Source: Perkinsus olseni (Eukaryota). From it: DNA of 54,827 nt. The notes below the pieces were generated by a model. That model saw nothing but the letters and a program-made list of their open reading frames with translations. It ran no database searches and was not told the origin of the DNA. The stretch lies in assembly GCA_013115125.1 (NCBI GenBank), contig JABANN010000193.1, positions 1-54,827 of the forward strand, given 5' to 3'. Below are positions 2,007-53,652 of the stretch, one piece after another. Both the position numbers and the translations under genes were made by a program. Position 1 is the first letter of the stretch, and each line of letters begins with the position of its first letter.

Positions 2007-2478
2007 TTTCAATCGGTTTTCCTTTCACTGACCTCAGCATCTCTCTGATTACCTACTATAATTCAAATTTAATAGTATATTGTAAGTTGGGAAATATGTT
2101 TCATGCCCGAGCGTGGGATAGAGTTGCAACGGGAGCGGGTATTTAGTCGTACAACGGAACCAGCCAGTTAGTTACGGTTATCAGCTCGTGGTGGCATTCG
2201 GCCTTCGATTTCGTGGAATGATTGGCGGCCGGTGAGGATAGGGTCGATGACACGATTTTGAAAGGATGGCTAGCGTCACAAGGACGGCAGAAATGGCGCA
2301 ACACGTCGATGGGCTCGGTAGGAATAGCAGAACCTGCATGATGTGAACTTGCGGGTGTCATCTACTCGTCGTGAAGTTGTTTAGGTATCTGATGGTTCAG
2401 GGAGAATCCTCAAATAGGGAAGTTGTGGTCTGACGCAGACTGCTTCACGCAGTGGTGATTTCAGTGTTATTTTAGCAC

Positions 2479-12357: not shown

Positions 12358-15300
12358 TTAGTTTTCCAGCATGGAGAAGAGCCCACTCCAGAATTCGTCC
12401 ATGGTGACGTCGGATTCGCGAGCATGCTCTACTGCGGTAGCGTTGCTGCGAATCGACTCCATCAATTGTGACAGTGAGCGTCCGATCTGAAGAGACGAGG
12501 GCTACAGCGAGGACTTGAGAGCGTCGACACTTACTGCGCTGAGTCTCTTCTCCACTCGCATACGTTCGAGGGTGTCGGCCCGGGACGCATCGGTGCTTCC
12601 TCCAGCACACGAGTAGAAGACAGAAGTCAGAAGCGACGAGCACGCCGAGGACACTCGCGCTTTAACGTCGTCGAAGCGAGTGATGAGGAAGTTCCATGCC
12701 ATGTCGCCCCCCTCAGAGGAGGAGGCCCGGACCGATCCCATGACTGTGTAGTAGTCCGAGGGTCGGACGATAGGGTTGAGGCTCCACTCGAGGGTGCGCT
12801 GCTTCAGCCGATTGTCCTTCACGTATCCCAGAGAAGCGTAGATGTCCACAACTTCCGTCTTAGTGACATCGTAGCGTTCCGCCCGCTCCTTGAGGGCAGT
12901 CCAGAAGTCTCCGCCGCCAGCCAGAGCCAGCTTGAGGACAGAGCGTCGGATATCAGCGGGAAGGGAGGAGGGGTCCTCGAGGTAGGCCTGAGCGCGCTGG
13001 CAGGCATTCTCGACCATCTCCTTGTTGGTGTGACAGTATTTACTGGCCAGATTGACGAGGGTGCTGCGGAGCTGTCTCGTCTTGGACTCGTCCGTAGGCT
13101 TGGAATCCCACCCGATGCGAGCTAGCGGGCCTTCAATCAACTCGGTAACCAACTTGTTCATCTCACTACCCCGACCGACCCCCTCGCAGATGATATCCAG
13201 AGCAGAGACGGTGATGGCGATCGCGTCCCAGACATCAGCGTCGCCTTCACTTTTGTAGAAGGTGAGCAGCTGGAGAGCCTCACACACAGTCAGGCGTTTT
13301 GCCTTAGCCAACGCTCGAGTAGTAGCAAGAAGCTGGATTTTGTCAGTTACCGGAAGGCTGCGGTGTGCTACCGCCTTAGCGAGAGCGCCCCTCATTTCCG
13401 GGCTAGCGTAGTGGACCCTGTAGGGCACCCAAGATCCGTAGTTCAAAGCAACCCACCTGGCGTTGCCGACATTAACGGTCTCAGACTTCTCACGCATCAT
13501 AGTTAGTCTGCCCATCTCGCCAGCCGGTGTTCTCTCATCACCAATGAGGATCGGCACCACCCACTTCTTCTCCTCGTCCCCCTCCTTCACCGAGCCATCG
13601 GATAGGAACCAACTTTGTGTGACTTTACAGTTACCATTGGAGTCACGAGGGCCGACCTCCAATACAGGATAACCCATCTGGTCCGTCCAGGAATCCATCA
13701 TCTCCTTCACGGGTTGACCGGACGCCTGAAGGCAGAAACAGCATACTATATGATGCGCCCTCTCGACAACCTCGTTGAAGCTACCTCCTCGAAGGCCTTC
13801 CACAAATCAGAAGTCTGCGTGTTTTTGTACTGATGACGGTCCATGTAGATTTGCACGCCTTTTTGGAATGCATCAGGTCCCAGGACCGCCCACAGAGTCC
13901 TCACGATAGCGCAGCCCTTCTCATAGGAAATAGCGTCAAAAACCTGTGGCCATGAGCGACTCCGCAGAGTACAGGAAAAGGGCACCGCCTACCTCATCAA
14001 CATCCTCAGCAGCGCTGATAGGGACCTTGATGGGGTGGCTCGACCTCATGCCGTCCAAGTGGAAGGCACTCTCCAAGTCAGAACTCACGTACCTGAGGAC
14101 AGCCTCTGTAGGCATCTTCGAAGCTCGTTACAGGCTGTTACATATTCCAGAGGCCCAGCTCGGGGAAGAGAGCATCGGCCGAGAGGTTCTCCATGAAGGT
14201 AGCGAAGCCTTCGTTAAGCCAGAGGTCATCCCACCACTCCATAGTGACGAGGTTGCCGAACCACTGATGGGCCAACTCGTGGCTGACTACTGTAGCGACA
14301 CGCTTACGTGTGCCGACCGAGACCTAAGTAAACACGCAATGCCCCTTGAGAGAGACCACGGATATCAGACGGGGAGGCGCCACGACCTACCTTGGCGGGA
14401 TCACAGAGGAGATCTACTTCTCGGAAAGTGACCAACCCCCAATTCTCCATGGCACCGCAGGCGAAGTCAGGGATGGCGACTAGGTCCAGCTTCGGCAAGG
14501 GGTAGGGGAGACCGAAGAACTTCTCGTACCTAGGCAGAAATAATGAGGAGGGCAGTGGCGCTCAACGGGGACGTACCACTCCAAAACGCGAGTGGCGACG
14601 TCCAGCGCGAAGTGGCACTGGTCCTTGCTGCCGGGAGTGGCCAGAACGCGGACCTGAGACTGGAAGGTCAGCGAGAGATCGGTCCAATTTTAACTTACGA
14701 GTGTACCACGCTTGGTGGCAGACTGCAGAAACTCGAACTCTCCAACAACGAGAGCCATCAGGTAAGGGCTCATCAAGGGGGACGGCATGAAAGTGACCTT
14801 TTGCATCAGTGAGCCGCTGTGCTCCGCAGGGAGGAGGGCTCTGGAGGCGTCGGGCATATTCGAGATCACCTGCATGGGTTGACGATATTCTTATCAATAT
14901 ACACCCATGAAGACCCAGAGAAGTCGCTCAGATAGGGAAGTGCGCTGTCGGTGATAACAGCGAAGACCTGGGAGCCATGGCCGCCTACCTGTCGGTGTGC
15001 CTCAGTGGTGACTGTTATACGGAATACAGCCTTGGCACCGGGTTCATCGATACAGGGGAAGGCTCTCCGTGCATCGATGGCTTCCATTTGAGTGCAAAGA
15101 AGATGCTTGGGCTTCCCGTATTGATCCACGTACCTGTGCGGAGCTCTCAGTGCGAAGATAAATGGAAGTTTCATCGGCCGTTCTCCACTCCGACCGACAC
15201 CCTCAGGCTCATTACGCTGAACGATAGAGGCCAGCCATCTGGTCGTTGAGGGTGCCAACATAATCGACGTTGAGAACTGCTGGGCCCGTCGGCAGCTCCG

Positions 15301-19677: not shown

Positions 19678-22600
19678 TCACAGGCCCTTCCAGAATTCGG
19701 GAGAAGCTATGGCGCTGGACTTGGCACGGACGACAAGAGCAGCGTTTGAGCGTATGTTCTCGACTATCTGCGATATGATGCGGGATATCTGAAAAATGCC
19801 ATGACGTCATGAATCTCGTAAAACCGAGACAGTGCTTACCGAAGTGAGCTCCTTCTCCTCGGCGAGTTTCTCCACATTATCGGCCATTTCGTAGGTGACC
19901 GAGCCTCTAGCGCAGCTCGAGACGACAGCCGCGAGCAGCGACGGGCTGGCTGTGGCGACACGACCCCTACAGGCGTCGAAGTTGGACAGAAGCCACTGCC
20001 AGGTCAATGGTCCGGCCTCTGCTGTGGAGCTTCGGACGCCTCCCATCGGATAGAAGAAATCTTGGGGCTTGATGAAGTTGGTAAGGCACATGTCTAGGGT
20101 GCGCTTCTTGAGGGCGGGGCTGGCGATATACCCGAGGCTGAGGTAAATGTCCATCCTGCAGCCTTGAGAGGTCTCGTATCTCTCAGCGGTTTTGATGAGC
20201 TCCTTCCACAACTCCTCTCCGACTGCGGGATCACTACCGGCCAAAGCCAACCGGAAGGCCGGAACTCTGACATCCTCGGCGAGGGAGTCGGGGTTCTCGA
20301 GGAAGCCGCGGGTCATCTCGGCGCATTTGGCGGCGAGAGATTTGTCAGATGAGCAGTGCTGCGACGCCAAACTGGCCAAGCAGGTTCGGAGTTGACGATC
20401 CTTCGGAGTCTCCCCGGCCCTCCTTTCCCAGCCGACCTTCTCTAACAAGGGAGTTATCATACCCGACACCAACTTGTCGAGTCCAGCAGTGCGGCCGAGG
20501 CCGGTGCAAATAGTGGACAGACCAGCGATGAGGTTGGAGAGGGCGTCCCAGACATCAGCGTCGGTCTCGTTCCTGTACGCCTTCAACACTCGAGGAGCAT
20601 CTTCGGGGCTGACGCGTCCGGCTTTAGTCAGGGCGAAGATATCACCCAAAAGGTTAACCCTGTTGGGGACGGGGACGGTCTTGTCGGTCACGCCGGCCAG
20701 AATCTTCGCATACTCCTCAGCGGAGGTGTAATGGACCCTGTAGGGCACCCACGCGCCGTAGTTGAGGAGAGCCCACCTGCCGTTGCCGACATTAATGGTC
20801 TCAGACTTCTCACGCATCATAGTTAGTCTGCCCATCTCACCAGCCGGTGTCTTCTCATCACCGACAAGGATCGGCACCACCCACTTCTTCTCCTCGTCCC
20901 CCTCCTTTACCGAGCCATCGGATAGGAACCAACTTTGTGTGACTTTACAGTTACCATTGGAGTCACGAGGGCCGACCTCCAAAACAGGATAACCCATCTG
21001 GTCCGTCCAGGAATCCATCATCTCCTTCACGGGCTGACCGGATGCCTGACCGTCCGCAAATATGGAGCCAAAGTATCCTGCGAAGCGCGTAACACTACCT
21101 TCTCCAGAGCCCTCCAGAGATCATCCGTAACAGAATTGCCGTACTGATGAGTCTTCATGTACTGGCGGACACCTTCGGTGAACTTGTCAGCTCCGACCAC
21201 CGCCCACAGCTGCCTCACAGCCGCGGAGCCCTTCATGTAAGAGATGGCATCGAAGACCTAGAAGGACTACCATCGAACGCCCCTACGTCGAAAACCATCA
21301 ACCTAACCTGCTCAACTTCCTCAGCCTTGTGGATCGGCACCACAATTGGGTGACTAGAGCGTAGACCGTCAAGGGCCAAGGCACGCTCAAAGGACTCGTG
21401 AATGTACCTGAGAGGAGGGACGATCATCCCAGCCAGAGTGCGTCGCTCCGCCCTACGAGTTCCACACACCCCAATCGGGGAAGAGAGCATCGGCGGAGGC
21501 GTACTGCATGAAGGTGGCAAAACCCTCATTGAGCCAGATACCATCCCACCACTCCATCGTAACGAGATTACCAAACCACTGGTGGGCCAACTCATGGGTC
21601 ACGACGGTCGCCAAGCGAGAGCGACGGTTGACGGAGACCTGTGAGCCCGACGATACGGCACAGAGAGAACAGCTAACGTGTAAGACGAAAAACCTCTGCA
21701 GTCGCTACTACCTTGTCAGCATCACAGAGGAGATCGATCTCTCTGTATGTGACCAGACCCCAGTTTTCCATGGCCCCCATGGCAAAGTCAGGGACGGCAA
21801 TCATGTCCAGCTTAGGCAGCGGGTAGTGAATTCCGAAAAAATCTTCGTACCTGAGTGACGGTATTGACGCCTAATGATGAAGGCGACCCACAGAGTCATT
21901 AGTCGTACCATTGGAGGCAGCGGATGCCCACGTCCAGAGCGAAGGTACACTGAGCTTGCTTTCCCGGAGTACAAAGGACGCGAACCTGAGGACGAGTGGT
22001 CGGGTATCAGTTAGGATGATAGATCGAATCACACCAGCGTTCCATTCTTAGTGGTGCCTTGGACGAACTCGAACTCGCCCACGCAGAACGCGACCAGGTA
22101 GGAGCTCATCTTAGGCGAAGGCATGAAGGAGACCGTCTGGTAGGCCACGGCCTTGTCAGCGCTGTTTTTGGTAAAAATGGTCCTGGACGACTCAGGCATA
22201 TTCGAGATGACCTGCCGAGACCTCCCCGATAGCGACCGTCGAGGATCCAGGTTCCCCAGCACCCACCTGCAGGTCAGCTTCGGTAGTGATAGTGACCTTA
22301 TAGACAGCTTTGCGTTCAGGCTCATCGACACAGGGGAATGCCCTCCTAGCATCGATGGCTTCCATCTGCGTGCTCAGCATGTACTTCTTCTTACCGAACT
22401 GGTCGATGTACCTGAGGTTGCCGCTACACTGTTGAAAGAGGAGAATGGATGAGGCCTACCCAGATCTGTAGAAGCCAGCCATCTGGTCGTTGAGAGTCCC
22501 GACATATTCAATGGCCAACTCTCCCTCGCCAGGCTGAAGCTCCTCCGGGAACTCGAATGTGCATTCCGTGGCGGCCTTCGAGACGCTCACTGAGGAGGCG

Positions 22601-23473: not shown

Positions 23474-26400
23474 TTACAAATTCTCCCAGTACTCTGCAGT
23501 AGCGACTGCGCTGCTCTTGGCTCGCTCGACCATGGCCGCATTGGAGCGGATGTTCTCGGCAATCTGGGAGATGGTTCGGGAGATCTGAGAACAACGCATG
23601 CCAACGAGCCTCTTCGAAAAGATACTCCGCACGGGCAAAAAAAAACCTAGCCAACTTACGGAAGTGAGGTCGTTTTCCCTGCCTAGTCTCTCAACGCTGT
23701 CCGCCATCTCGTAGGTGAAGCCCTTCCTAGTGCAGTTGAGTATGACTCCAGCCAGTAGGGAAGAGCTTGCGGTGGCGACACGGGCTTGGCAGGCCTTGAT
23801 GTTGTTCAACAACCACTTCCAGGTCATCTCAGCGGCGTCCTGAGTTGATATGCGGACGCCTCCCATCGGGTAGAAGTAGTCCTGGGGCTTGATGAAGTTG
23901 GTGAGGCACATATCTAGGGTGCGCTTCTTGAGGGCGGGGCTGGCGATGAAACCAAGGCTGACGTAAATGTCCATCCTGCAGCCTTGAGGGGTCTCGTATT
24001 TCTCAGCGGTTTTGATGAGCTCCTTCCACAACTCCTCTCCGACTGCTGCATCACTACCGGCCAAAGCCAACCGGAAGACCGGAACTCTGACATCCTCGGC
24101 GAGGGAGTCGGGGTTCTCGAGGAAGCCACGGGTCATCTCGGCGCATTTGGCGGCGAGAGATTTGTCAGATGAGCAGTGCTGCGACGCCAAACTGGCCAAG
24201 CAGGCTCGGAGTTGACGATCCTTCGGAGTCTCCCCGGTCTTCCTTTCCCAGCCGACCTTCTCTAACAAGGGAGTTATCATACCCGACACCAACTTGTCGA
24301 GTTCAGCAGTGCGGCCGAGGCCGGTGCAAATAGTGGACAGACCAGCGATGAGGTTGGAGAGGGCGTCCCAGACATCAGCGTCGGTCTCGTTCCTGTACGC
24401 CTTCAACACTCGAGGAGCATCTTCGGGGCTGACGCGTCCGGCTTTAGTCAGGGCGAAGATATCACCCAAAAGGTTAACCCTGTTGGGGACGGGGACGGTC
24501 TTGTCGGTCACGCCGGCCAGGATCTTCGCATTCTCCTCAGCGGAAGTGTAATGGACCCTGTAGGGCACCCACGCGCCGTAGTTGAGGAGAGCCCACTTGC
24601 CGTTGCCGACATCAATGGTCTCAGACTTCTCACGCATCATAGTCAGTCTGCCCATCTCACCAGCCGGTGTCTTCTCATCCCCGACGAGGATCGGCACCAC
24701 CCACTTCTTCTCCTCGTCCCCCTCCTTTACCGAGCCATCGGATAGGAACCAACTTTGTGTGACTTTACAGTTACCATTGGAGTCACGAGGGCCGACCTCC
24801 AATACAGGATAACCCATCTGGTCTGTCCAGGAATCCATCATCTCACGAACTGGTTGACCAGACACCTACACAAAGGAGCGATATACGAGGGCAGCATCAC
24901 AACCCACAGTCTCAGGCAACACAACACTAGACAACTCCTAATAAGCACCGATCCCAATGCGTCAAGTACCTTCTCCAAAGCGTCCCACAAGTCCTCCGTC
25001 ACGGAGTTGCCATACTCGTGAGCATGCATGTACCGACGAACGCCCTCTTGGAACTTCTCAGCACCAAGTACGGCCCACAACTGCCGCACGACTGCAGAGC
25101 CCTTCTCGTAAGATATGTGGTCGAACACCTGAAGAACTCCATACCGATAGAGTCCCCATGAAACCCATGCTTACCTGATCGACCTCCTCAGCATGATAGA
25201 TGGGCACAACAATAGGATGACTCGAACGCAGTCCATCGAGCTCAAGACCACCTTCGAAAAATTGATGAACGTATCTGTCAACATCGGTCCGGTGCATGGA
25301 GAGCATCAGCCGCCCGTGCTACGTATTCCACATGCCCAGCTCAGGGTAAAGGGCATCGGCACTGAGGTTCTCCATGAAGGAGGCGAAGCTCTCATTCAGC
25401 CAGATACCATCCCACCAGTCCATCGTGACGAGATTGCCGAACCACTGGTGAGCCAGCTCGTGAGTAACGGTGGAAGTGATGCGAGCCCGACGCTTCGTTG
25501 ACAACTGCACACGGGATAAAGTAGTGACGTCGAATGAGAGGCGACGGATGGGCTACCTTATCGGGGTTACACAGGAGATCGATCTCCCTGTAGGTGACGA
25601 GGCCCCAGTTTTCCATGGCCCCCATGGCAAAGTCAGGGACAGCTATGAGGTCAAGCTTAGGTAAAGGGTAAGGAATACCGAAGAACTCCTCGTACCTGCA
25701 CGAACACTACTGCTCTGAGTCTCATTACAGCTCGCGCAGTACCAAGCTAAGACTCTCGTGGCGACCTCGAGGGCGTATCCACACTGTGCCTGCTTCCCTG
25801 GTGTGCACAATACGCGGACCTAGACAGAAGCACATGACCACCTTGCCACTACTGTCCCCATGGCAGCCCTCCGTCTCAGCGCCTCGATTGACCATAAAAC
25901 GGGGGGACATATTCTCATACGACGCGCTACAACATCGGCTGGTGTAACCGTCAGATACCTACCAGGGTTCCCTTCTTCGTAGTATCCTGGACAAACTCGA
26001 ACTGTCCGACACAGAATGCCACAAGATAGGAGCTCATCTTGGGAGATGGCATGAACTCCACCGTCTGGTAGGATCGATAGAAAGCTCCTTCGCGTTAAGC
26101 TTGATCGTCTTGGTCGGTTTCGTCACCGCCAGAGAGACTTTCGAGGTTCCTTGGAAACGGAAGTTGTCGAAATTAGGCTTGAGATGAATATCATACTCGC
26201 TGATGACGATGTTGTCAGGAAGCACATAGCGTGCAGACTGCTCACCAGGACTGGACATAACCGATGAACGTGCTAATGAGACCTGCAACAAGCACCCTTT
26301 CTACACTCCTGGCGACTTTTCGAGAGATTCAATACAGCCCTTGGCGTGCATCCTTCCACCCACGAGCGCTCATTCTCTCCTTCAAGTTCGATTCGACCGA

Positions 26401-27637: not shown

Positions 27638-29299
27638 TCATTCAGACTGAGCATCTTCGACATCCTTGTCCACCGGAGAGTTCCACTTCTCGAGTAACCA
27701 TCTGAAGGGAGAGTCGGTGGTAGCCGACGCGCGCTGAGCATCCGGGAGTATAGCCTCGTTCATGCGCACGTTAGGGAGTAGCCAGAGAAACCCCAACGGG
27801 ACCAGCTGGACTCCGATGCAAACCAAAGAGACTTTCCAGAGGTTATCAAACTGACTGGACTCGTCGACGCCAGGAAGACCTCGAGGATCCACTCCCAGGC
27901 TTTTGCTGATGAAACCCGTTATCGAGCCAGTGCTCATGAACGCAAAGTTGAACGAACCAGCGAGGAGGGCAAACATCAACCCCTCGACATTCTGCGGGCA
28001 CATGTAAGACAGCATCAGAAAGCCCGGCATGTAGATGAGTATCTGACCAACCTGTACGAGAGCGGTACTGCCGATAACGAAGACCTTGTCCGGTATACCC
28101 AGGCTAAGGTTGAGGCGAGAGTAGATGATAGGGTCTCCTAGCTGTAGAATAAATATGACAATTATGATAACAACATAAACTCGACGATAAGTCCACGTAG
28201 CCATGAAGCGAGTGACGATAATCACACTCACTACACCGGCGAGAATACCGACCGTATTGACGACAGAGCCATAGAAAAAAGCAGAGAAATTGGGGCCTCC
28301 AGGAAACTGAACTGCATCGTCGGTGAAAAAGTATTGCGCTGGTCCTGAGGGTTGAAGTCGTGTGGCACCAGTTATGCACTTGAAAAGCACCAGCCTCCCT
28401 ATCACAGGCTTCAGCAGCATCGAGGATGCAGTTAGCATGAGAACCAATAGAAGGCACAGCATCACAAAGTTTACTGTGAAGGAGCCAACGACAACTGATA
28501 CCACAGAGTAAACCACGACTATTGCGCCGACGAGTAGCGACAGACAAACGAGTTCAGGTTGCTCCTTCCACAACTTCTTCCGTTCAGCACGCGCCCAAAC
28601 TGCGCTACGCTTCTCCTCGCCGAAGTAGTTCAGCAAGACCGGGACGACGAGAGCAGCTGAGGGGAGGAGGGTTGTGCCCAGCGCCCATTGAGAGCCCGTA
28701 TGACCTCCGATGTTAGGCGCGTATTGGACGATAACTCCTGAGAGAAAACCCGCAAGAAGTCCAACTATCTTCTGACCAGCCGTGACGTAACCGACTAGAG
28801 CCGGGCCATCGACTGGGTTGTCCGATACCTTCCGAGAATAAACAGCTTCAGAGAGGAGATCAGCGCAGGTGATCCAATAGAAGATCATCATGAACAGCCC
28901 AATGATGCCGTACGAGACCACCGTGGGGGAGGGCACGATGAGAACTGCCAGAAGGGTTCCAGCTATACCGATTGCCCCCGCACCAACAAGGTAAGGCATT
29001 CTTCTGTAGCCAAAGAGAGGGAAGCAGTCCGAGAGGAGACCGACCCATGGCTTCAGTGCAAACGGCATGAACACGATGCTCATGTAGCGGTCCATCAACG
29101 GCCCGGGTACGTTCATATCCTGGAGATAGAATCTGACGACACTGTTGACCATCAGGTAGCAGTATCCCTTGGGCCAGTGTATTGTGAAGTGCAGGACAAC
29201 CAGGAGTCTCCATCCGAAGGCATCAGAAAGTCTTCGGAAGAAGCCCGATAACGGTATTGACGAAGCAACCTTAGAAAAGCTCGTCGGAGACGCAGCCAT
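27638..29299 (-). CDS. Folate/biopterin transporter (BT1 family, MFS), intronless
   Basis: Uninterrupted ORF from ATG 29299; MPFALKPWVGLLSDCFPLFGYRRMPY, DLLSEAVYS, CPQNVEGLMFALLAG and FDNLW motifs. Confidence 0.92.
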   Translation of the reverse strand: MAASPTSFSKVASSIPLSGFFRRLSDAFGWRLLVVLHFTIHWPKGYCYLMVNSVVRFYLQDMNVPGPLMDRYMSIVFMPFALKPWVGLLSDCFPLFGYRRMPYLVGAGAIGIAGTLLAVLIVPSPTVVSYGIIGLFMMIFYWITCADLLSEAVYSRKVSDNPVDGPALVGYVTAGQKIVGLLAGFLSGVIVQYAPNIGGHTGSQWALGTTLLPSAALVVPVLLNYFGEEKRSAVWARAERKKLWKEQPELVCLSLLVGAIVVVYSVVSVVVGSFTVNFVMLCLLLVLMLTASSMLLKPVIGRLVLFKCITGATRLQPSGPAQYFFTDDAVQFPGGPNFSAFFYGSVVNTVGILAGVVSVIIVTRFMATWTYRRVYVVIIIVIFILQLGDPIIYSRLNLSLGIPDKVFVIGSTALVQVGQILIYMPGFLMLSYMCPQNVEGLMFALLAGSFNFAFMSTGSITGFISKSLGVDPRGLPGVDESSQFDNLWKVSLVCIGVQLVPLGFLWLLPNVRMNEAILPDAQRASATTDSPFRWLLEKWNSPVDKDVEDAQSE

Positions 29300-29399
29300 C
29301 AATGTATTGAAGAAAGGCCTGAATTCATGAATTCGAAACAGAATCCATGACCAGTACGTTCGCGATCGACATTCTCACGCAAGCACGAGAAGTCTTTGT

Positions 29400-40068: not shown

Positions 40069-41694
40069 TTAGTCCTTGCGGATCTTCCTGCACTCGTAGT
40101 AAAAACGCTTTTCATCAGCCTCGCCCATGCTGAAGGTCTTCCGGGGCAGCGCACCATCGTGTACAACAGTCTTGAAAAGATCCGACTTGTGCATATCAGG
40201 CAGCACAATTCCAACGTTCGACGTACCAGCAGTGCAGTACCTGGTAAACAGAAAAATAAATCCTGCGCATGCGTGCAACATTCCATACCACTCCTCACCC
40301 AAATCGCGCAGAGCAACTCACCTCTCAATAGCTGTCAAACCATGAACGTAATCAATCTTAGTGCCATTGGCCTCGTTCTCCTTGATGTAGGGATCGACAA
40401 AGTCCATCACTGTGGCGACGTCCAGGACCTTCTTCGGGTTGGCCACAAAGACGCCTCCCTTAACACCATCAACCATATACCCGAAGCTGTGTCCAGAGCC
40501 CTCGCCCTTGACGGCCTTCTTGAAGTCCTCCTCAGTCTCGCTCACAGTAACCGGACCGCAACCCTCCTTCTCGAAAAACTGCGTCATGTCAGTGATGAAC
40601 TTCCGGCTACCCCCATTGGCGTTGAAAATAAGTCTATGAATTGCCTCAAAGGCCAGACCATCGTCATGGATGTTCTCAATCTCGACCAAGGCGAATCTAG
40701 CAGGGTGGGTGGCGATCTCCTCAGGGTCAGTGAGGGTCGCCTTCACCTCCTGCCAGTACGCTCTAGCAGTCGCCAAGGAGTGATTGCCATCGCCAACTGC
40801 GAAGATCAGAGGTTTCTTGTCGGCGGGGGCGTCGTAAATCTTATGGAAGCGTTCAGGCTCAGCAATGACGTTGAGGGCCTTGGCGACCTCGGCACTCTGG
40901 GAGCTCTCGCCGTCAACCCACCAGCCGGAAAGGTGACCGCCATTCTCCATCAGGTCAAAGTCGTAGACCTGCTTCAGCTCATCCCTCTTAGCGAAGAGTG
41001 GCTCCAAAACAGCCTTCTCCGGATCGTCGATGAGGACCATAATATGCGGCAACTCCACCGGGGCGTTACGACGGACGTCTGACAAGGGGAAGTCAGAAAT
41101 TCACAAACACACTAGGGTAGCAACTCACTCAAACGCGGGGGAATCCTCGATTCGATGGTAGCTTCAGTCGGGCGAATCTTGCTCTGGCTTCCCACAGAAT
41201 AATCATACATCTCCAGGTCGACAGCAGTGACCAAACCAGTACGCGTAGCACCGGTCTTCGTGGTTCGTGAGACCAAAACCATCCCAGGCTTCTCTGGCCT
41301 CACAAGGATACCCTCCGCAGTGTACTTGGCCATGTGATCAGAGATGCTCTTCAGTATCTACTCCACAACAACTATAACAAAACTGCACTCACAAGCCCCA
41401 TCACACTCACCTCCTCATCGTGGCCCTTATCGAGATAGACCTCCGGGAACATCAAACGCAAGGTGCTGGGCGCATCGCCAACGAACTGCTCCACACGCTC
41501 CCAATAGTCGGGCTCGCTCGTGTACCTAAAAGCAACACTTACTAGAAGCTAGTGACAGGGAAGACAGGCTCTTACTGGTCACAGGCGATGACGGCCCACT
41601 TCGTCTTGTCGACTTTATCGGCAGGCAAGAGCGTGTAGGGCACTCGAACGCCGACCTTTGCAAAAAGCTCGTCCGCAGTAGAAGAGGAAGACAT
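40069..41694 (-). CDS. DUF1015 family protein (bacterial-type), multi-exon
   Basis: KWAVIACDQYTSEP.YW, DLEMYDY...IRPTEATI..RIPPR, ELPHIMVLIDD, FAVGDGNHSLATA, LPRKTFSMG....KRFYYE; ATG 41694, stop 40069. Confidence 0.85.
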
Positions 41695-42427
41695 AGCTCT
41701 CAGAATAAAAGTAGTATTAACAAACTGATGGTCTCAATGAAATTGCAGCTCGAAAAACCTTTTAGGGCGACTATGACAGACAAACGCTAGAGCCGAGCTG
41801 CGGAAGCGTCGCTAGCAGCACAGCATGATCAGAATCTTCTGCAGCTTAGCCACGACGAGGAGGCGACCATGCAGTCGCGATAAGGCTAGGCCCATCTCTC
41901 CGACAATTAGCTGCGATATACACCACTGGCCACGCTCTTGAAACTAGTTACTCCGATGAGAATGCTTAGAAGCCCCGCGGAGCCGTGAATAGTAGAGCTT
42001 CGAACACCTGCGGTTGTTACACCGACCGGCCGCTACAGACAAAGAGCCTACAAGGGCCGCAGAGAGTGACAACATCGGGATAGAGACGATGATCCTATCA
42101 CACATTAACAGAGGTATCCATCAGAGCACTGCTGTCGGATGAGCGAAACCTCAGTGACGGTGATGCTAAAGATGTGACGCTGCGCACGCCTTTGTGTGCG
42201 TGTCTCCCTCAAAAATCTTCAAACACGGACCGCCGCAGCTCTCTCATGAACGCGAAAGACAATGACAGAGAAACACGTTAATAGCATCACAGATTGCCAT
42301 TATAAGAGTCTACAGTAAATTAAACTTCTTGCCACGGTCATTGCTGCAGCTTCCGTGACATAAAAAAACCAAGAAATTCGCACCAACGTTTCGGCTAGTA
42401 TGTGAACGCCCGAGACTTCTTCGTTGG

Positions 42428-45400
42428 CTACGCCTGAGCAACGCGATCAGCTTGCTCGCCCTTGGTGCCCATGTTCTCCAAGAACCGCATCCACTTGACG
42501 AACTCAGGCTCGCCAAGTTCAGTCCTAACTTGAGCGAAGCACTCGTACCTGAGCAATGCAAAGGTACTCGGCGTGAAGACCGAACAGTCCATCCTACACT
42601 AAACGTCCGACTTCTTCTGTGTTCATGGGGACACCCAACTGAGTGAAGGCCTCTCCCAGCTCATCCAGGGACACAAAACCTGCTAATGACAATCAGCGGA
42701 GAGATCTCTAGGAGCGAACGACCATCTACCGCTATGATCAGCATCAATCTTCCTGAAGAAGGCTTTGAGGTCCTCGGCCTCCTCCTCCTCGCTGGGCTTG
42801 ACCAAAGCAAGGACCATCAGTACCTACGATCTGAATGGCACAACCCATGCCGAAAACTGTACAACACTTTCGACAATTTCGACCTCAACCCTGAACCTTG
42901 CGAAAAGCGCACGCCCAGACGCTCATGAAGACCTTGAACTCTTCCTCATCGAGCTGTCCAGAACCGTCCTTATCAACCATCTTGAGCAAAGCACATGCCG
43001 ACTTGCTAGCTTCCGTGCCTGGAACCACTCCCATCGCTGCCATAACCTGAACCGCTCCTTCACTCAAAGGAACCCAGCAGACTCCAGCCAACTCACCTCT
43101 TCCATCTCCTGGCAGTCCACAGTGCCGCTAAGATCCGCGTCGAAACTCTCAAAGGTGTTTTCAATCTTCAACTTGGCCTCCTCCGACAGCGACTTGAACG
43201 TGGACAACGCAGCCTTATACCTAGCATGGCGCAAGCGAATGCTCAGGCTAACTAGTCACAGCCTAGTCTTACTCCTCGTCTGAGATCGTTTCCTCTCCCT
43301 CGGCTGCCAAGCGTCGGGCCTTCCCCTCTAACTTCACCACAGACAAAACCTTCAACGCCTGCGACAAGCGCTCTCGCTTCACATCGAAAGTAACCTGAAG
43401 CAAAACCGTAGTAGAGGAGGGCGTAGCCAACAGTCTGTCGCCACCTTCTCAATGAGCTCGGGGTCCTTTAGGTACTCGATGCTAGTCACAAGGGTTAGTC
43501 TGCTCATGACGTGGGGTACCTAGGGATCATGAGGGCGAACCCAGAAAGAGGGATGAAACCGACAAGCACAGAGCAGAACAGTATCTTTTCGTTCGGAAGA
43601 AACCAGACCAACTCAATCTACAGTGGTTTCTCCGAAGAGAGCCCTCCGAAGGGAGCAGGGCTTACTAGGTATCTGGCCATCACCGCCCACTCGAGCCACG
43701 ACAAAACATAGAAAGCCCAGGACAAGGCTGACCACTCAGAAGGGCCGCCGATGACAATCAGTACCTACAAAACTGCTGAATGAACCATGAAGGGAGGGAG
43801 CGTATCGGGGATACAACGACGAGGGAGGGAGTCCTGAGCAGACCATTGGCTTACAATGAGAGTAGCAGTGAGGACGGCTTGGAAGAACATCATCATCTCG
43901 AGCATGTGGGCGAAGATATCCAGAGAGTACTCCTCGAACCACATCAGTCGCTCCTGGGCGTTCGGGACCTACCAAAGAGCAGAGAATTGCTGTATTGCTC
44001 AGTCGCTTCTGCGACGCAGCGACACATGCGCCAGCTTCTTTGGCGGCGACTGATCGATCCTTTTACACTGCATCATTTCCATCAAACCACGAATCACATT
44101 CACAAGGGTAAGATCCTTCCAACGGCATTCCCGACCACTTGAGCGAAATAACGAGACCGGACAGAATCGCACAGCTTCGAAGGCTCCAACCGACTGTGGA
44201 CATTCCCCAGCCGTCACCGCCCAAGACCCACCCTGTGTCTGTGCTGGCAGATGAGCTTCATCACGGTACTTCTCTGGTGAACCGGTTTGAAGTAATCCTC
44301 CCGCTGGCGGAACCTCGGCACCCACGAGAACATCCCTGAACACTGCGAGTGACCAGGAGGCCTCGACCGCCACGAGCTCACTTGACTTCGCTTGCAGTAA
44401 CGGCTCCGTGAGATCCTCCTCCTCAGACGACTAAACAGAGAGGGGATTCATCGCAGCGTTACCGAAGGTATGGCACTACGCTGGCGGGTGTGTCACTGTC
44501 TGATGGACGCTTCGCCGAGGGTCGATCAGGAGACCGATAGTGTCGCTGAAAGGCTGCCAACGATGTGCCTGAGATAGCACACAGAGTTGGACGCAAGAGG
44601 AAGGCTTATCATGAGCGAGCCATTAAAGCGATCATATACGCCGCTTATACAGTCGCACCAACTTGTTTGGAAGAGCGGAGAAAGGCCACCAACAACGATC
44701 CCAAGAAACGCCTACCGGAAAGCATCTGCAACAGCACGGCAGCTCTCGAGGGAACCACAGGCGAGAGGGCGATCATGACGTTAGTAATATGGACCTGATG
44801 ATGGACACTGAGGATCATCCCTGGGAGGGCGGATACTCACGTAAAAGGCAAACATGGCCAGGAGGAGGAGCCAAGAGAAGCCACAGATCATAGCAATACG
44901 GATGGCCGTAGAATAGGACAGTATCTGCATCAACGACCCTTGGCGTATCCTAGGGGCGGGTGCCACGGATCGATGAGAGTAAGAGCCGAGAGCCTTACCC
45001 AAGCAATGCAAGGCGTGAAGAGGACAGCCACCACCCAAGTGGCCAAGTCAACCTCTACCAGTTCGACCTGACAAAGGAGGACAGTGCGAGTGCCCTGGAA
45101 CTCATGATTTTTCCATCATTTTCAACGTGCGTAAGTCAAACGCAGGAGCGATTGACTGAACACTACGACTGGCACCGCAGTCCACGAAAAAATCGAGACT
45201 TTCTGGTTGATTCGCCTTACGAATCCTTCTCCCAACTTTTCCGTTAAATATCGCTCGAAGTCAAAGACGATGGGGTCTCGGACTTCCGGGATCTGACAGA
45301 ACCTTCAGCCTGACCGACCAGGCGTGCTGCAGTCCCTACCTGAGAGACCAAGGCTAGCTTCTGACCTCGGCCGTGCGAAGGGAACAGGAACTCATGACGT

Positions 45401-46900
45401 AGCAGCCTCCAGATCACGATATCGCGCAGCTCGTCAGGGACGATGTAGGAGAACTGAGAAGAACAGACGACCGCTGAGCCACCGACAACTGCTCTTTTCT
45501 GTCGATAGGAACGGGTCCGCTCAAGACTTTGCTGTCACCGTTCGTATCACACTCGAGCAGACGAGGCCATACAGTTGGTGGGAGATGCTAAGGAGCACTC
45601 AAGGAAGAATACACGGAAAAGGCGCAGCGAAAAGTGTGAGAAAGCCAGTCGTATAAAAACATGTAAAAGCGAGGAGTTAACGACGCGTACATTACCCAGT
45701 TCTCCGAAAACTTCAGCGGCGACTTCTCGTTGCCTTCCTCATCCAGGAAGCCTCTGTCAACCAGCCTGCGCCTGACGGTTAAACACACTAGAGATCCAAC
45801 CATGAGGGGCTCTGTAGGTGTTAGTACTCGAGCGAGTTATGGCGAGAATCCGCATGCTTCTCCCGGCCTGTCTCCGACATCTGCTCCCAGACGTCCCACC
45901 TCCTAGTGATACGCTCTGCACCCAGCATGAGCGTCACACACTGGAAGATGAATACCACCATTACCTACTCAAAGTCAGGAGTGCAGAGTACCGCCACGTC
46001 GAGCCATGCCTACGCAAAAGATAATCATGTGGATCGACTCAAAGCTCTCGGCGAGAGGATCATCCCCTCCCTCCTTTGCAGCTTCACCAATAACCTATAC
46101 AAATGCAGCTGATGTCGATGGATTCTGAGTAACATAACACGACTTACAGCCTTGCTGATCTCCTTCGCCAACCCAGTCTTGGTGCCTGCATGAGCATGGA
46201 TGGGCAAATTACTACCATGCATCATCAACGTACATATAAAGACGAAGAGGCCGATGAAGCCAAGGATCATAATTTCGCGGAACAGCGTGTCCATCATCCG
46301 GACCAAAGTCGTCTTCCCCTCCTCTTCAAGCTTCTCTCTGATTCTCTCTTGGATCTACCAAAAAACGCCATGACCGTTGTTGAGCATGAACCGTTCGATA
46401 ATTACATATTCAAACAGCAGAGAAAGGACGATGACCACGACGACCTCTGTGACGTACACCCACGAAGAGACTTCTTCCTGCAGTGAAAAACTGCAAAGGC
46501 CATTCTCTCACCACTGTCCTCTCATCACCTCCTCGCCTTCGACCTCCGCATGCAGCGCACCAACCGACCTCGCCGCCATGGACATCGAGGAGGCAGGCGC
46601 GGTGTCACTCGATAGAAAAGCCTGATGCGAGCCCATGGAGCCCTGAAGTGGGGACGCATCTTGCCACTACACAGCGATGACAGCTTTGCCTACCTCCATC
46701 GACGCTGAGGTTAGAGTCGACAGCACCCAAGCCAAACAAGCTACGCAGGCCGCAAAAATCATCAATAATTTGAGCAGCAGTCCTGAGCGCGAACGCGATT
46801 TCCCCACCAGACAGGAAGCCGCCCGAAGTTTGAGTCGCATCGGACTACCTGGCACCGCTCGCTTTCTTCTTTTGGCGACTCGTGTGGCAACCAGAGACAT
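42428..46900 (-). CDS. MLO-like multi-pass membrane protein fused to a C-terminal EF-hand (calmodulin-like) domain, multi-exon
   Basis: Spliced exons give SSWVYV.EVVVVIVLSLLFEY, TLFREIMILGFIGLF, FESIHMIIF, FDFERYLTEKLGEGF..LVEVD..TW and QERLMWF...LEMMMFFQA (MLO motif order), then DADLSGTVDCQE, DKDGSGQLDEEE, DADHSGFVSLDE; stop at 42428. Start 46900 is tentative. Confidence 0.78.
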
Positions 46901-47736
46901 ACGGAGTCAATAAAAAACAATCAAACAATCTGATGAAGACATATTTCAAACCTTCCAGCTATTGGTTGATCACTGAACAAGGGTGCGCGTTGTAAAAAGC
47001 GCTCGCCCGGAGGCCATTACACAACTACAATGTACAATTATTTCGCTTGCGTGGAGGCTGGTGACTGGCGTGGGTAGTCCCGTTCACCCTCTCCGTGCTT
47101 CGCGAGTGCTACATGATAAAGCGTAACGATTTCTCGCACCTCACGTTGATTTCTATAGAGAATTCATGCGTCAGTAATTGCATTTCTAAACTAGAATCCG
47201 GTATGCTTTGGTGATGCGCGTAAACTGCTTTGAACAGTTATGAGCGAAAATATCTACATAAGTGGTTGAAGTTTCCCATCATCAGTCCAGTAGTCGGGTG
47301 TGGCTCCCGCATTACCTCGATTGCCCTTTTCTCTATATCTGGTCTATTCTATCCTAGGACCGCGTACTGTAAGGGGTTAGTGAGGAGAGGGAGCACGTTT
47401 CACTGGTTTCCGATATGCTTGTGAAATGCGACGAGGATCTTTTAGTTTGCGACGCCATTTTTCTTCGGCAATCAACCTATCCCATCAAATCGCCTTTGCA
47501 TCAGCTTGTAATTTGGTACTGCGTTACGGCCGCACTCACAGTCCGCGGTCAGGCCCTCGGTCTACTGAGTATCTATTCTCACGGAGTGGTGGTCGACGCT
47601 AGGGATTTTCTTCAGGGTCAGGTTTGTTCTAGTGACTTCCACGTAGCAAGCAGCCTATCTTTCTAGTTGGAATCAATACCGAGCATTTCGAGCCTACATG
47701 TTGGAGAGCGACCGATCACAAGTGCTAAGAGGTTGA

Positions 47737-51500: not shown

Positions 51501-51925
51501 CTAAAGAGGATACATCAATGGCTGCCAGGAAGGCGTTGGTCGATGCTATTATCGAGCCTACTGGTGCGAGCGCTGAAAGCATTATGGTGAGCTGGGTTCA
51601 TTCTCCAAGCTCCATATGTGGAGGGGAGATTGTCTCGGCATTCAGGCGAGGTATCGTAATCGTGCTTACCGCTGGGCAGTGCAAGGCGATGCAAACACTC
51701 TAAGCTTCGAATCCAGACAGGATCTGGGAGCCTCGCCGCCATAAGCTTCAAATAAGACACGCGGATAATGAGTGAGCGGAGAGTCGCTAAAGCACGACTG
51801 CACCTGGGCTGCACGCATGCACAGACTGAAGTCGATTCCATGTTCCATTCTGTCGTTGAATACTCCGTGATGTTGCGTTACCTAGTACTCTGGTTCAAAC
51901 CTTCTATCTGGGCTAGTACTCTTCC

Positions 51926-53652
51926 ATGTCCTCTCTCCGGCCAACCCCCGGAGTATGCGTAGCCACGCTTATCATGGGTGACACCTCTTACATAGCGGGC
52001 GCGATGGTCATGGCCTATTCGGTTCGGAAACACTGCGCTGGCGGCTCTGTTCCATTTCACACAGTCTGTATAGTAGACCAGAACATGACCGATACCGAGG
52101 CCCTCGATTGCGTGTTCGACCACGTAGTTCGGGTTGAGCCCATATTGGCTGAACCCATGGGGAAGCGCTGGAAGCGCTATGGAGCCCATTATGATTCGTG
52201 GATCGACTCTTGCCTCACCAAACTGCACGTTTTCAATTTGTACAAGCTGGGGTACCAGAAAGTGGTTCTCGTCGATGCTGATGTCTTGGTCGTTGATGAT
52301 CACTTTGCGAGCGTGCTGTCGGCGCCAGCGCCGTCCGGGATTTGCAGCGATGAGCCGAACAAACTTGATGGGAAGCCGAGTCACCTGCGGCCTTTGAAGA
52401 CCGGTGACAAAGTGCCGGCTGCATCACTGAGGAGCGCACTGGCGATATCGTACGGTATGCGAGGATGTCTCATGGTGCTGCCGACTGGTGCTCGCCATTT
52501 CCAACAGAGCCTTCATCGAGTGGCCAAGGAGAAGTCGGAAAAGGAAGGATACGTTGGAAAGTGAGCAAGGGGACAATTTTTGTGTCGGCAGCCATGCCGA
52601 CTTAGCTATAAGCATTGGCTTTAGAGGATCGTCGTTTCATATCCGTGCATCCCCCGAACTCCTTCGTAAACATCATTGATGATACGCATCATCCTTCCCG
52701 GTGTGGTGTGCTCACATTGCCTCATCGGTGTTCTATGAATGCGAAATCGGTGCTTTGCGTAGCCTATCGGCTCATCTCCTCATGGATGTGCATGAGCTGC
52801 CGAACTCACAAATCAAACACATGGCTGTGCACCCTCCTTCCCGGTTTCACATTCTTGTATTACCGGTGTTCTCAAGGTGCTACAAGAAATAGCGCTCACT
52901 TAATGCCGGGTTTCCGTAGGAGACTCCTTCCTGTGCGCGCCGACATCGTCACTGCCAAGTGCCAAAAGCGTATGCTGACGTACACGCGAGTGCATTCAGT
53001 TTGCTGCAGGTGCGGCGATCCGAAATGCAACGCAGGACCTGACGAGTGGCTTCTGAGTGTTCACTTCAAAGGTCAGTGGAGGCACTTGGAGGAAGCGTTC
53101 TGCTGTCGATACTGGCATGCCAAGACTCGAGGTACACCGCGAAGCTGCATCTGTTATCATCATGACAGACGAACGCTCCCATCAGGTGTCACTCCAATAG
53201 CGATACATTTCGTGACTGACAAGCCTTGGAGTCGCACGTCCAAGAAGCACTGGCCTGACTTTGACATCTGGCTGAAGTATGCTCATGCTTGCCTCGGCGA
53301 CGTCCAGAGAGAAGACCAAGCTTCGAGAAGTGGTTACAAGATGTTGGGTGCTGCCATCGAGGTGTGTGAGGAGCGACGACTTCGATCGGCACCGAAGATG
53401 CGCGGTACTCCAGTCGGCCGTCCTGTGAGGGATATGTCGCGAAATAAGAGTGACGGAGTTGACAGCCGATTCGAAAGCAGGAAGAATACTGAAGCACCTC
53501 TTGTGGTCTCTGGCGGATTAACTCGATCGACGGACACCACTGGCCCCGCCAAAGGCAACTCGGCCAAGAAGACATGGAATCGACGTAGGAGACCATTCTA
53601 TCGATCTGCGATTCCCAGGTTAGACGAGGACAAAGAAGGAACTTCGGGGTGA
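51926..53652 (+). CDS. GT8 glycosyltransferase (glycogenin-like), 3 exons
   Basis: ATLIMGDTSYIAGAMVMAYSV, LTKLHVFNL, DxD motif LVDADVLV, GPDEWLL, HFVTDKPW; introns at about 52561-53009 and 53132-53185. Confidence 0.85.

Follow-up and report, generated by a model that had tools for sequence, protein, structure and literature searches.

An expressed 26-exon gene of Perkinsus olseni joins an MLO-like membrane domain to a calmodulin-like EF-hand domain

The gene and its transcript

The window analysed here, a stretch of 54,827 nucleotides (nt) of Perkinsus olseni DNA (contig JABANN010000193.1, positions 1 to 54,827 of the forward strand), carries on its minus strand, at 46900..42428, a gene predicted to encode an MLO-type membrane protein with its own EF-hand domain. 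The locus is one expressed gene of 26 exons and 25 introns that is capped by a spliced leader and gives rise to one mRNA, and its EF-hand exons are not a separate gene. The exons were placed using exact matches to the public protein P0003 as seeds together with a splice-site search, in which the AG acceptors were imposed by the script whereas the GT donors were not; a GT donor was found at 25 of the 25 introns. The resulting coding sequence (CDS) comprises 2385 nt, begins with the ATG at 46900, ends with the stop codon at 42430-42428 (-) and encodes 794 amino acids (aa) with no internal stop. In gene order, introns 1-13 measure 66, 51, 51, 51, 48, 53, 49, 56, 242, 47, 153, 74 and 46 nt and introns 14-25 measure 147, 49, 46, 263, 90, 146, 50, 52, 50, 109, 50 and 49 nt. 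No single open reading frame (ORF) across the gene was found on the minus strand of 42000-47400, where the stop-to-stop pieces are short, as expected of a gene consisting of many small exons; the G+C content is even over the window (50-57%). The original prediction, which had proposed many small minus-strand exons not visible as one ORF, was exact in its coordinates.

The features of the gene are listed below with the evidence for each in brackets. The aa ranges of the exons refer to the 794-aa window protein, whereas residues of the model and the alignment are numbered according to P0003, the window protein being one residue longer after about residue 430 (TM, transmembrane helix; UTR, untranslated region; pLDDT, predicted local distance difference test).

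46930..46931 (-): spliced-leader trans-splice acceptor AG, the mRNA body beginning just downstream (contig ends and PmaSL1 match)
46901..46929 (-): 5'UTR of ~30 nt without upstream ATG (sequence; contig cover)
46849..46900 (-): exon 1, aa 1-18, start ATG 46900 (gene model)
46694..46782 (-): exon 2, aa 18-47, hydrophobic signal/anchor helix (hydropathy 2.52; model helix 18-44)
46529..46642 (-): exon 3, aa 48-85, Ser/Ala/Glu-rich, predicted disordered (pLDDT < 50 at 44-87; covered by X12 record 5)
46406..46477 (-): exon 4, aa 86-109, TM1 (W..LSLLFEY) (gene model, hydropathy, AlphaFold2)
46234..46354 (-): exon 5, aa 110-150, first cytosolic loop and TM2 (REIMILGFIGLF) (contig piece 46233-46354 in 4/4 runs)
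46148..46185 (-): exon 6, aa 150-162, short outer loop helix (gene model, AlphaFold2)
46014..46094 (-): exon 7, aa 163-189, start of TM3 (ESFESIHMIIF) (E181, H184 and F188 nearly invariant)
45828..45964 (-): exon 8, aa 190-235, TM3 and RRWDVWE (gene model; contig pieces)
45696..45771 (-): exon 9, aa 235-260, second cytosolic loop (gene model)
45340..45453 (-): exon 10, aa 261-298, second cytosolic loop with R279 and invariant F282 (alignment; contig pieces)
45221..45292 (-): exon 11, aa 299-322, FDFERYL motif (gene model; alignment)
44999..45067 (-): exon 12, aa 323-345, TM4 (VELVEV..TW) (printed contig joints)
44841..44924 (-): exon 13, aa 346-373, TM5 (gene model, contigs, AlphaFold2)
44716..44794 (-): exon 14, aa 374-400, last part of TM5, leading into the third cytosolic loop (gene model, contigs)
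44480..44568 (-): exon 15, aa 400-429, third cytosolic loop, low confidence (contigs, AlphaFold2)
44382..44430 (-): exon 16, aa 430-446, acidic stretch (gene model, contigs)
44232..44335 (-): exon 17, aa 446-480, basic third cytosolic loop (gene model, contigs)
43855..43968 (-): exon 18, aa 481-518, TM6 (LMWF..MFFQA) (gene model, contigs, AlphaFold2)
43666..43764 (-): exon 19, aa 519-551, TM7 (gene model, contigs, AlphaFold2)
43445..43519 (-): exon 20, aa 552-576, end of TM7 and conserved S-I-E..K....I..V (contigs, alignment)
43273..43394 (-): exon 21, aa 577-617, conserved basic amphipathic linker helix from TM7 to the EF-hands (contigs, AlphaFold2, alignment)
43097..43220 (-): exon 22, aa 617-658, EF-hand 1, canonical (Pfam, contigs, loop check)
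42933..43046 (-): exon 23, aa 659-696, EF-hand 2, canonical (Pfam, contigs, loop check)
42730..42823 (-): exon 24, aa 697-728, first half of EF-hand 3 (Pfam, contigs)
42598..42679 (-): exon 25, aa 728-755, second half of EF-hand 3, canonical (contigs, loop check)
42428..42548 (-): coding part of exon 26, aa 755-794 and stop, degenerate EF-hand 4 (contigs, loop check)
42300..42427 (-): 3'UTR, running on below 42300 (X1 record 1 on 42300-42545 from its own position 401)

Homologous proteins were retrieved by translating a clean exon (46354-46235) and seeking longer proteins that contain it. Four of the 21 candidates matched, namely a Perkinsus marinus "calcium binding protein, putative" of 729 aa (P0001), a partial P. 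olseni protein of 163 aa (P0002), P. olseni FOZ62_015621 of 793 aa (P0003) and P. chesapeaki FOL47_011149 of 789 aa (P0004). The window translation shares an identity of 97.6% with P0003 (794 columns), 88.7% with P0001 (707) and 82.1% with P0004 (788). The identity to P0003 indicates that the window stems from P. olseni or a very close relative, and from an isolate or haplotype other than that of P0003. The three full-length public models are predictions for which the Pfam Mlo and EF-hand families are precomputed, and the gene is correctly predicted in the public databases. A tblastn search of P0003 against the window revealed no second gene copy, the remaining matches having E values of at least 0.73.

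In 24 sequencing runs of 15 studies a share of 0.18-0.43 of the sampled words of the locus was present, which is approximately what spliced exons of ~90 nt would leave. The transcript evidence was taken from Logan assembled contigs of the runs X1, X2, X3 and X12, which belong to four studies, and it bears out the exon structure: each of the 15 splice joints printed (10 further joints are not shown) is present in all four runs. The printed joints read CT..AC on the plus strand, corresponding to GT..AG on the gene strand, and skip 49, 50, 109, 50, 52, 50, 146, 90, 263, 46, 49, 147, 46, 74 and 153 nt, i.e. introns 25 to 11. All joints between the exons for TM7, the linker and the EF-hands are among them (43516>43663, 43392>43443, 43217>43270). 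Introns 1-10 are supported indirectly by exons 10, 8 and 5, which sit at positions of the contig records that fit the lengths of the intervening exons. Furthermore, the 2517 nt of X2 record 6 are the sum of 92 nt of 3'UTR (42336-42427), 2385 nt of CDS, 31 nt of 5'UTR (46901-46931) and nine loose letters, implying that all 25 introns were removed from this contig, and by length arithmetic X12 record 4 (2034 nt) spans exon 26 into exon 4. Single contigs running from the TM exons through the EF-hand exons were detected in X2 (2517 nt), X3 (2477 nt) and X12 (2034 nt), the last being a recorded RNA run. The bin 44027-44183 inside the 263-nt intron has a depth of zero in all four runs. The joint of the 242-nt intron 9 is not among the 15 printed, and its removal rests on the contig arithmetic.

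It could be argued that the fusion is an annotation artefact joining adjacent MLO-like and calmodulin-like genes. Kusch, Pesch and Panstruga warned in 2016 that predicted fusions may stem from inadequate intron positioning and requested transcript or proteome data (PMC4824068), and the public Perkinsus models are indeed predictions. However, contigs of all four runs from the four studies join exons 20, 21 and 22 across GT-AG introns of 50 and 52 nt, single contigs lead from exon 4 or upstream to exon 26, the frame is open across all joints, and complete fused ORFs occur in transcriptome assemblies of other protists. The separate EF-hand gene that had been named as a counter-case to the original prediction does not exist at this locus, since EF-hand and MLO exons are connected within the contigs, and an annotation artefact appears extremely improbable.

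At the 5' end, contigs of X1 and X2 end at 46931 with loose letters. The reverse complement of the nine loose letters of X2 together with the genomic AG at 46931-46930 reads CTTGGCTCAAG, identical to the final 11 nt of PmaSL1, a spliced leader of Perkinsus, in its published form (PMC3101222). The loose letters of X1 comprise the last five letters of the spliced-leader end followed by an Illumina adapter. A 10-nt spliced-leader end had no match in the window DNA, as expected if the leader is added in trans. The mRNA appears to be trans-spliced with a spliced leader ~30 nt upstream of the ATG at 46900. This ATG is the first in the trans-spliced mRNA, which supports the long N-terminus with its hydrophobic helix. 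At the opposite end an X1 contig reaches ~400 nt below 42300, reflecting either a long 3'UTR or a contig that extends toward the neighbouring DUF1015 gene.

A few further observations concern reading frames and introns of the gene. Missed exons inside the introns of 263, 153, 147 and 146 nt were considered and rejected, since the contigs skip exactly those lengths. Intron 1 (46783-46848, -; 66 nt) is in frame and free of stops, so that the frame 46667-46906 reads across it; its retention would insert 22 residues ahead of the signal/anchor helix, and the length of the X2 contig shows that it is spliced out. An X1 contig of 308 nt (45418-45725, -) is unspliced across the 242-nt intron 9 at a depth of 33 versus 270 for the spliced form and carries G>T at 45448, and the frame 45588-45836 meets a stop inside this intron; the contig could represent intron retention, pre-mRNA or DNA carry-over. 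The 181-aa frame at 42738-43283 (+), among the longest of the region, is antisense to the EF-hand exons and not a gene in itself. The same applies to the 143-aa frame at 43999-44430 (-), of which only the first 16 codons correspond to exon 16, the rest being mostly non-coding (intron 16, exon 17 in another frame and intron 17).

Domains, relatives and neighbouring genes

Pfam families were scanned on P0003, P0001 and P0004 with gathering cutoffs of 24 bits for Mlo, 30 for EF-hand_7 and 25.4 for EF-hand_1. The Mlo family (PF03094 / IPR004326) was matched above its cutoff by P0003 (49.1 bits, E 3.7e-13), P0001 (45.5 bits) and P0004 (46.6 bits). Judged by this threshold on the 97.6% identical P0003, the N-terminal part with its seven predicted TM belongs to the Mlo family, in agreement with the MLO-like membership originally proposed and not with the missing Mlo match named as its other counter-case. 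The motifs named for it occur in the order claimed, with W..LSLLFE in exon 4, REIMILGFIGLF in exon 5, IHMIIF in exon 7, FDFERYL..F|VELVEV across exons 11 and 12 and LMWF..MFFQA in exon 18, the last being a C-terminal motif which we take to resemble one of plants. Window exons scanned singly gave sub-threshold, collinear Mlo matches, such as exon 5 to profile positions 32-72 (12.3 bits, E 0.053) and exon 8 to positions 157-193 (11.2 bits, E 0.11), both scores lying below the cutoff.

Language-model neighbours of residues 86-576, which serve as leads only, were Pfam Mlo clusters, the top one scoring 0.96 (226/256 features; Oomycota); 28 of the 30 neighbours fall within the Mlo family set, including a Chlorophyta "Mlo family" cluster at 0.86. 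Residues 440-612 gave no usable feature match in the protein atlas, and the structural rows of the atlas for residues 440-612 and 86-576 had template modelling scores <= 0.36, the atlas model being poor (pLDDT 0.61). No plant MLO was found among the homologues of residues 86-576, which amounted to 14 proteins from 8000 scored candidates, all with EF-hand families.

The EF-hand part of P0003 matched EF-hand_7 with 73.3 bits (E 2.1e-20) and EF-hand_1 with 59.4 bits, and window exon 23 alone matched EF-hand_1 with 27.2 bits. The canonical loop was defined as 12 residues with ligands at positions 1, 3, 5 and 12. All canonical ligand positions are kept in three loops (DADLSGTVDCQE, DKDGSGQLDEEE, DADHSGFVSLDE), and the fourth loop (FAQVRTELGEPE) is degenerate, just as had been predicted. 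According to a PDB sequence search residues 626-775 match centrin (5.3e-19) and calmodulin (6.2e-16); no MLO entry occurred among the best 60 of 493 matches, all on residues 611-786. A Foldseek search against the PDB assigned a probability of 1.00 to troponin C, centrin and calmodulin at ~30% identity, and VIA-align gave a Z score of 9.6. Based on these sequence and model comparisons the C-terminal part is a four-EF-hand domain of the calmodulin/centrin type with a two-lobe fold and a predicted Ca2+ sensor.

A phmmer search of P0003 against 1.84 billion representatives resulted in 5513 matches with E <= 0.001, of which 624 had E <= 1e-10 and 70 had E <= 1e-30. Among 152 proteins collected once the best 150 of the 5513 matches had been listed, a list that favours fusions since the EF-hand part adds to the score, 94 combine an N-terminal MLO part with an EF-hand region, and 47 of these 94 also possess a C-terminal MLO part according to phmmer. 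The remainder consists of 26 fragments with the C-terminal MLO part and EF-hands, 20 proteins with EF-hands only and 12 with MLO only. The MLO-EF-hand architecture is common among protists. The closest relatives outside Perkinsus among those listed are complete ORFs of transcriptome assemblies, one of them from Telonema subtile.

An alignment (A1) was built from 67 of the 94 fusions, near-full-length proteins picked by eye. Of the 27 fusions left out, 15 had no C-terminal MLO part that could be detected, whereas the other 12 possessed all three parts. In A1, 33 of 67 proteins match Pfam Mlo and 64 of 67 match EF-hand_7 at E <= 0.001, and the canonical form is seen for EF loop 1 in 60, for loop 2 in 47 and for loop 3 in 56 of the 67 proteins. 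EF loop 4 (758-769) is canonical in 31/67 and degenerate in the Perkinsus proteins, a loss that, judging from the sequences, seems specific to the lineage.

The neighbouring genes were surveyed by Pfam scans of long open frames (17 of 51 listed). Immediately 3' of the MLO-like gene, and likewise on the minus strand, a DUF1015 match was obtained at 40318-41100 (E 4e-31, profile positions 133-321 of 325). Three ERAP1_C frames at 12502-13806, 19807-21120 and 23474-24865 (-; E 5e-50, 5e-51 and 3e-47) look like a tandem array of three putative M1-aminopeptidase-type genes. Furthermore, a BT1 family transporter frame was detected at 27638-29374 (-; E 2e-56), two adjacent MFS_1 transporter frames at 570-2006 and 2476-3861 (+; E 6e-44 and 7e-39) and a glycosyltransferase-8 piece at 51917-52564 (+). 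The MFS_1 and BT1 frames are unusually long uninterrupted ORFs amid an intron-rich stretch. The Pfam matches of the scanned frames suggest no functional link of the MLO-like gene to its neighbours.

Predicted structure and possible regulation in cis

An AlphaFold2 model of P0003 built on the 67 relatives (pLDDT 80.5, predicted template modelling score 0.82) contains a helix at residues 18-44 as signal or anchor, a disordered stretch at 44-87 and seven long helices at 90-120, 124-152, 175-217, 330-347, 351-383, 491-523 and 530-562. These helices support the multi-TM topology of the original prediction; six of them coincide with a hydropathy peak, and TM7 (530-562), which stays below the threshold of 1.5, relies on the AlphaFold2 helix. 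The cytosolic loop 231-310 is well modelled and 411-470 is of low confidence. Basic residues are concentrated in the loops 110-131, 205-328 and 384-490, which suggests a cytosolic location of the EF-hand domain similar to the C-tail of plant MLO.

TM7 is followed in the model by a helix at 570-606 (block pLDDT 79-95) and the EF-hand domain at 614-792. EF loop 1 follows the end of TM7 after 67-128 residues (median 80) in 67/67 relatives. Within this linker S563, I564, E565, K568, I573, V576 and K581 represent the majority residue in 41-51 of the 67 proteins, and positions 589, 591 and 592 are hydrophobic in >= 90% of them. A conserved amphipathic helix, different in kind, sits at the place of the plant calmodulin-binding site. 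In Foldseek superpositions the EF-hand domain deviates by 4.9-5.9 Å from compact peptide-bound calmodulin and GCaMP and by 11.6-16 Å from extended calmodulin and troponin C. VIA-align to fusion constructs of calmodulin (CaM) and M13 begins within the linker (6xyr on model residues 582-779, 173 aligned, Z 8.6; 6hr1 at 585-776; 6u2m at 596-776), and the regulatory apparatus of a calcium-dependent protein kinase (CDPK), 2aao, is also among the structural matches of the EF-hand domain (Z 7.0, model 613-702). The model thus appears to put the post-TM7 helix where calmodulin would grip its target peptide. A complex prediction of the EF-hand domain (613-786) with helix 560-612 and three Ca2+, run without alignment or controls, scored 0.02 twice against a mark of 0.34.

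Based on the predicted structure and on the analogy with plant MLOs, we presume with a probability of roughly 0.6 that the protein acts as an MLO-type device for Ca2+ entry or its control, and that its own calmodulin-like domain regulates it in cis by clasping the helix behind TM7. Its four parts are the signal/anchor helix, the seven-helix MLO domain, a conserved helical linker of ~80 residues between the end of TM7 and EF loop 1 and a presumably cytosolic EF-hand domain. The MLO domain, probably oligomeric, would mediate or control Ca2+ entry, as reported for plant MLOs, while the fused EF-hand domain would replace the free calmodulin of the plant MLO tail. Binding of cytosolic Ca2+ at the three intact loops may cause the EF-hand domain to clasp the amphipathic post-TM7 helix and thereby feed back on the membrane domain in cis, a logic similar to that of CDPKs with their fused calmodulin-like domain and junction helix. 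The "self-gated Ca2+ channel" of the original prediction is likewise something we infer by analogy with plant MLOs.

Instead of gating its own chain, the EF-hand domain might serve as a Ca2+-dependent adaptor for other proteins or a neighbouring subunit, or as a Ca2+-independent structural module. The degenerate fourth loop of the Perkinsus proteins and the absence of a plant-type, Trp-bearing calmodulin site would fit such a role. However, every ligand position is kept in three loops, the linker helix is conserved and near-constant in length, and the modelled domain is compact, resembles the target-bound state and is of high confidence, so that a mere adaptor or structural function seems improbable.

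The principal rival to Ca2+ entry regulated in cis retains the entire architecture and doubts the pore alone: the MLO domain may serve in the membrane as a scaffold, or as a regulator of, for instance, secretion or a different Ca2+ channel, and the EF-hands would render this activity Ca2+-dependent. The structure searches are in line with this alternative, as no solved channel fold was prominent for the membrane part and the best matches other than EF-hand proteins had Z <= 8.5 at 4-10% identity. Among the best 50 rows of a Foldseek search of the whole 793-residue model against the PDB only EF-hand proteins were found, and VIA-align yielded generic helical similarities for the membrane part (CorA with Z 8.3 at 4% identity; spectrin repeats and designed bundles with Z 7-8.5), scores that lie below the level the tool regards as meaningful for helical proteins and that were obtained with the whole model rather than the TM domain alone. 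On the other hand, the charges at the ends of the TM helices (E136, E181 and H184 in 63-64 of 67 relatives and E327 in 51 of 67) would suit an ion path, but prove nothing. We regard a scaffold or regulator as the less likely option, albeit as the most serious competitor.

Several points weigh against a Ca2+ entry device regulated in cis. The Mlo matches cover profile positions 5-72 and 142-288 of 483, and the TM6-TM7-linker segment matched no Pfam family at E up to 10, so that homology to plant MLO in the C-terminal half rests on helix count, helix order and the resemblance of one motif. The Pfam scan and the folding were run on P0003, from which the joined translation of the window differs at ~19 of 794 positions. 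Plant hallmarks are missing: C150 is the only cysteine located in or next to the predicted outer loops, and no Trp occurs in the linker 562-616 of P0003, this residue being present there in only 17 of the 67 relatives. According to the available part of the 2016 study, P. marinus MLO-like 1 has two and MLO-like 2 none of the four conserved extracellular MLO cysteines (C83, C96, C139 and C386 in the numbering of PMC4824068), and the calmodulin-binding domain (CaMBD) column of its supplement is empty for both proteins. For the plant proteins themselves, pores and recruiters of other channels are still stated as alternatives in the available text of a 2026 preprint (10.64898/2026.04.10.716904). 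As to the transcripts, X12 is on record as RNA and X1, X2 and X3 are guessed to be RNA, and the evidence consists of assembled contigs rather than raw reads, in which rare isoforms may be hidden. Finally, the clasp is deduced from root-mean-square deviations and aligned ranges of the model.

Comparison with known systems

MLO-like proteins of alveolates including Perkinsus were described by Kusch, Pesch and Panstruga in 2016 (PMC4824068). The available parts of this paper report C-terminal fusions of MLO with calmodulin-like EF-hand domains in Alveolata, Stramenopiles, Chlorophyta and Apusozoa, term them Rosetta-stone proteins and propose several independent fusions. Supplementary files 8, 10 and 12 list the P. 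marinus proteins XP_002778911 (729 aa) and XP_002773408 (798 aa) as putative MLO-EF-hand hybrids, with seven TM predicted by TopCons for both and a signal peptide for the 798-aa form (PMC4824068). The printed sequence part of XP_002778911 reads as P0001, and the lengths are equal. The fusion as such is therefore already known, its P. marinus orthologues having been in print since 2016 (PMC4824068), and the original prediction, which considered the protein apparently uncharacterised in this lineage, was right with respect to function and not with respect to existence. Both P. marinus proteins, MLO-like 1 and 2, are orthologues that share the order of parts with the window protein (MLO, EF-hands, seven TM), the identity to P0001 being 88.7%. 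In contrast, the 729-aa P. marinus model lacks the N-terminal exons, and the models of 2016 were without transcript evidence, whereas splicing and the spliced leader were observed here. What the present analysis adds is modest and comprises the exon-level transcript proof, the spliced-leader 5' end, the absence of the plant cysteine and Trp hallmarks and the conserved linker, itself a hint of one old fusion.

A functional study of any protist MLO-EF-hand protein was not found in the literature, which is weak evidence of absence, and the papers found that combine MLO with Toxoplasma gondii and calcium included none on MLO-like proteins by title or abstract start. The role of MLO proteins and their control by calmodulin are still disputed. 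A natural chain that contains both MLO and sensor would suit expression, structure determination and flux assays, and the fixed stoichiometry of a fused regulator would make its deletion or the mutation of its loops a clean test. For the biology of Perkinsus, a parasite of molluscs, the protein represents a plant-like candidate in Ca2+ signalling. The transcript proof asked for by Kusch et al. (PMC4824068) is now supplied at the present locus.

The protist fusions reported from oomycetes, green algae, Apusozoa and alveolates including Eimeria (PMC4824068) and the relatives found here have the same domain order as the Perkinsus protein. The relatives found here are 20-40% identical to it and differ in the fourth EF loop, which is canonical in 31/67 of them and degenerate in Perkinsus. 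It is conceivable, though doubtful, that a single early eukaryotic fusion underlies these proteins, that the ~80-residue linker (S-I-E..K....I..V....K) is the target of the sensor, and that the fused form is an ancestral, self-contained Ca2+-feedback channel and plant MLO with its free calmodulin a later split, contrary to the proposal of 2016 that fusions occurred several times independently (PMC4824068). In favour of this scenario the linker aligns in 67/67 proteins with majority residues in 41-51 of 67, and the relatives include Telonema and oomycete-type clusters. Against it, the 67 proteins were chosen from the best matches to a query containing the linker, and most of them are without known organism. 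If a single fusion were true, Perkinsus would have a plant-type Ca2+ entry route without counterpart in its mollusc host.

Channel activity of MLO proteins has reportedly been described by Gao et al. in 2022 and 2023, as cited by the 2026 preprint. In its available text this preprint models plant MLOs as trimers that surround a central pore and bind calmodulin at the proximal C-tail, and states that they are reported to mediate Ca2+ influx (10.64898/2026.04.10.716904). The term "cryo-EM" (cryo-electron microscopy) is absent from the preprint, and a solved MLO structure was not found in the PDB sequence or Foldseek matches listed. Similar to the Perkinsus protein, the MLO proteins of land plants (barley Mlo, Arabidopsis MLO1-15) match Pfam Mlo and have seven TM and a calmodulin-type partner at the C-tail. 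Several motifs of the plant MLO consensus (PMC4824068 supplement) have recognisable counterparts in Perkinsus (SIFIEH/SLLFEY; KSELMLLGFISLLL/FREIMILGFIGLFV; LHIFIFVLAV/IHMIIFCVMVV; RRWKAWEK/RRWDVWEQ). In plants the proximal C-tail is bound by free calmodulin or calmodulin-like protein (CML), whereas the sensor is covalently fused in Perkinsus. Moreover, the Leu/Trp calmodulin-binding site of plant MLO was not found in the Perkinsus protein, the extracellular cysteines are absent, the outer loop between TM2 and TM3 is short, an additional signal/anchor helix is present at the N-terminus, and TM5-TM7 are without Pfam match.

The arrangement also resembles that of CDPKs, which carry a calmodulin-like domain in the same chain, behind a junction helix to which it binds on Ca2+ loading. 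The effector of a CDPK is a kinase, whereas the putative effector of the Perkinsus protein is a membrane domain, and the homology between both systems is confined to the EF-hands.

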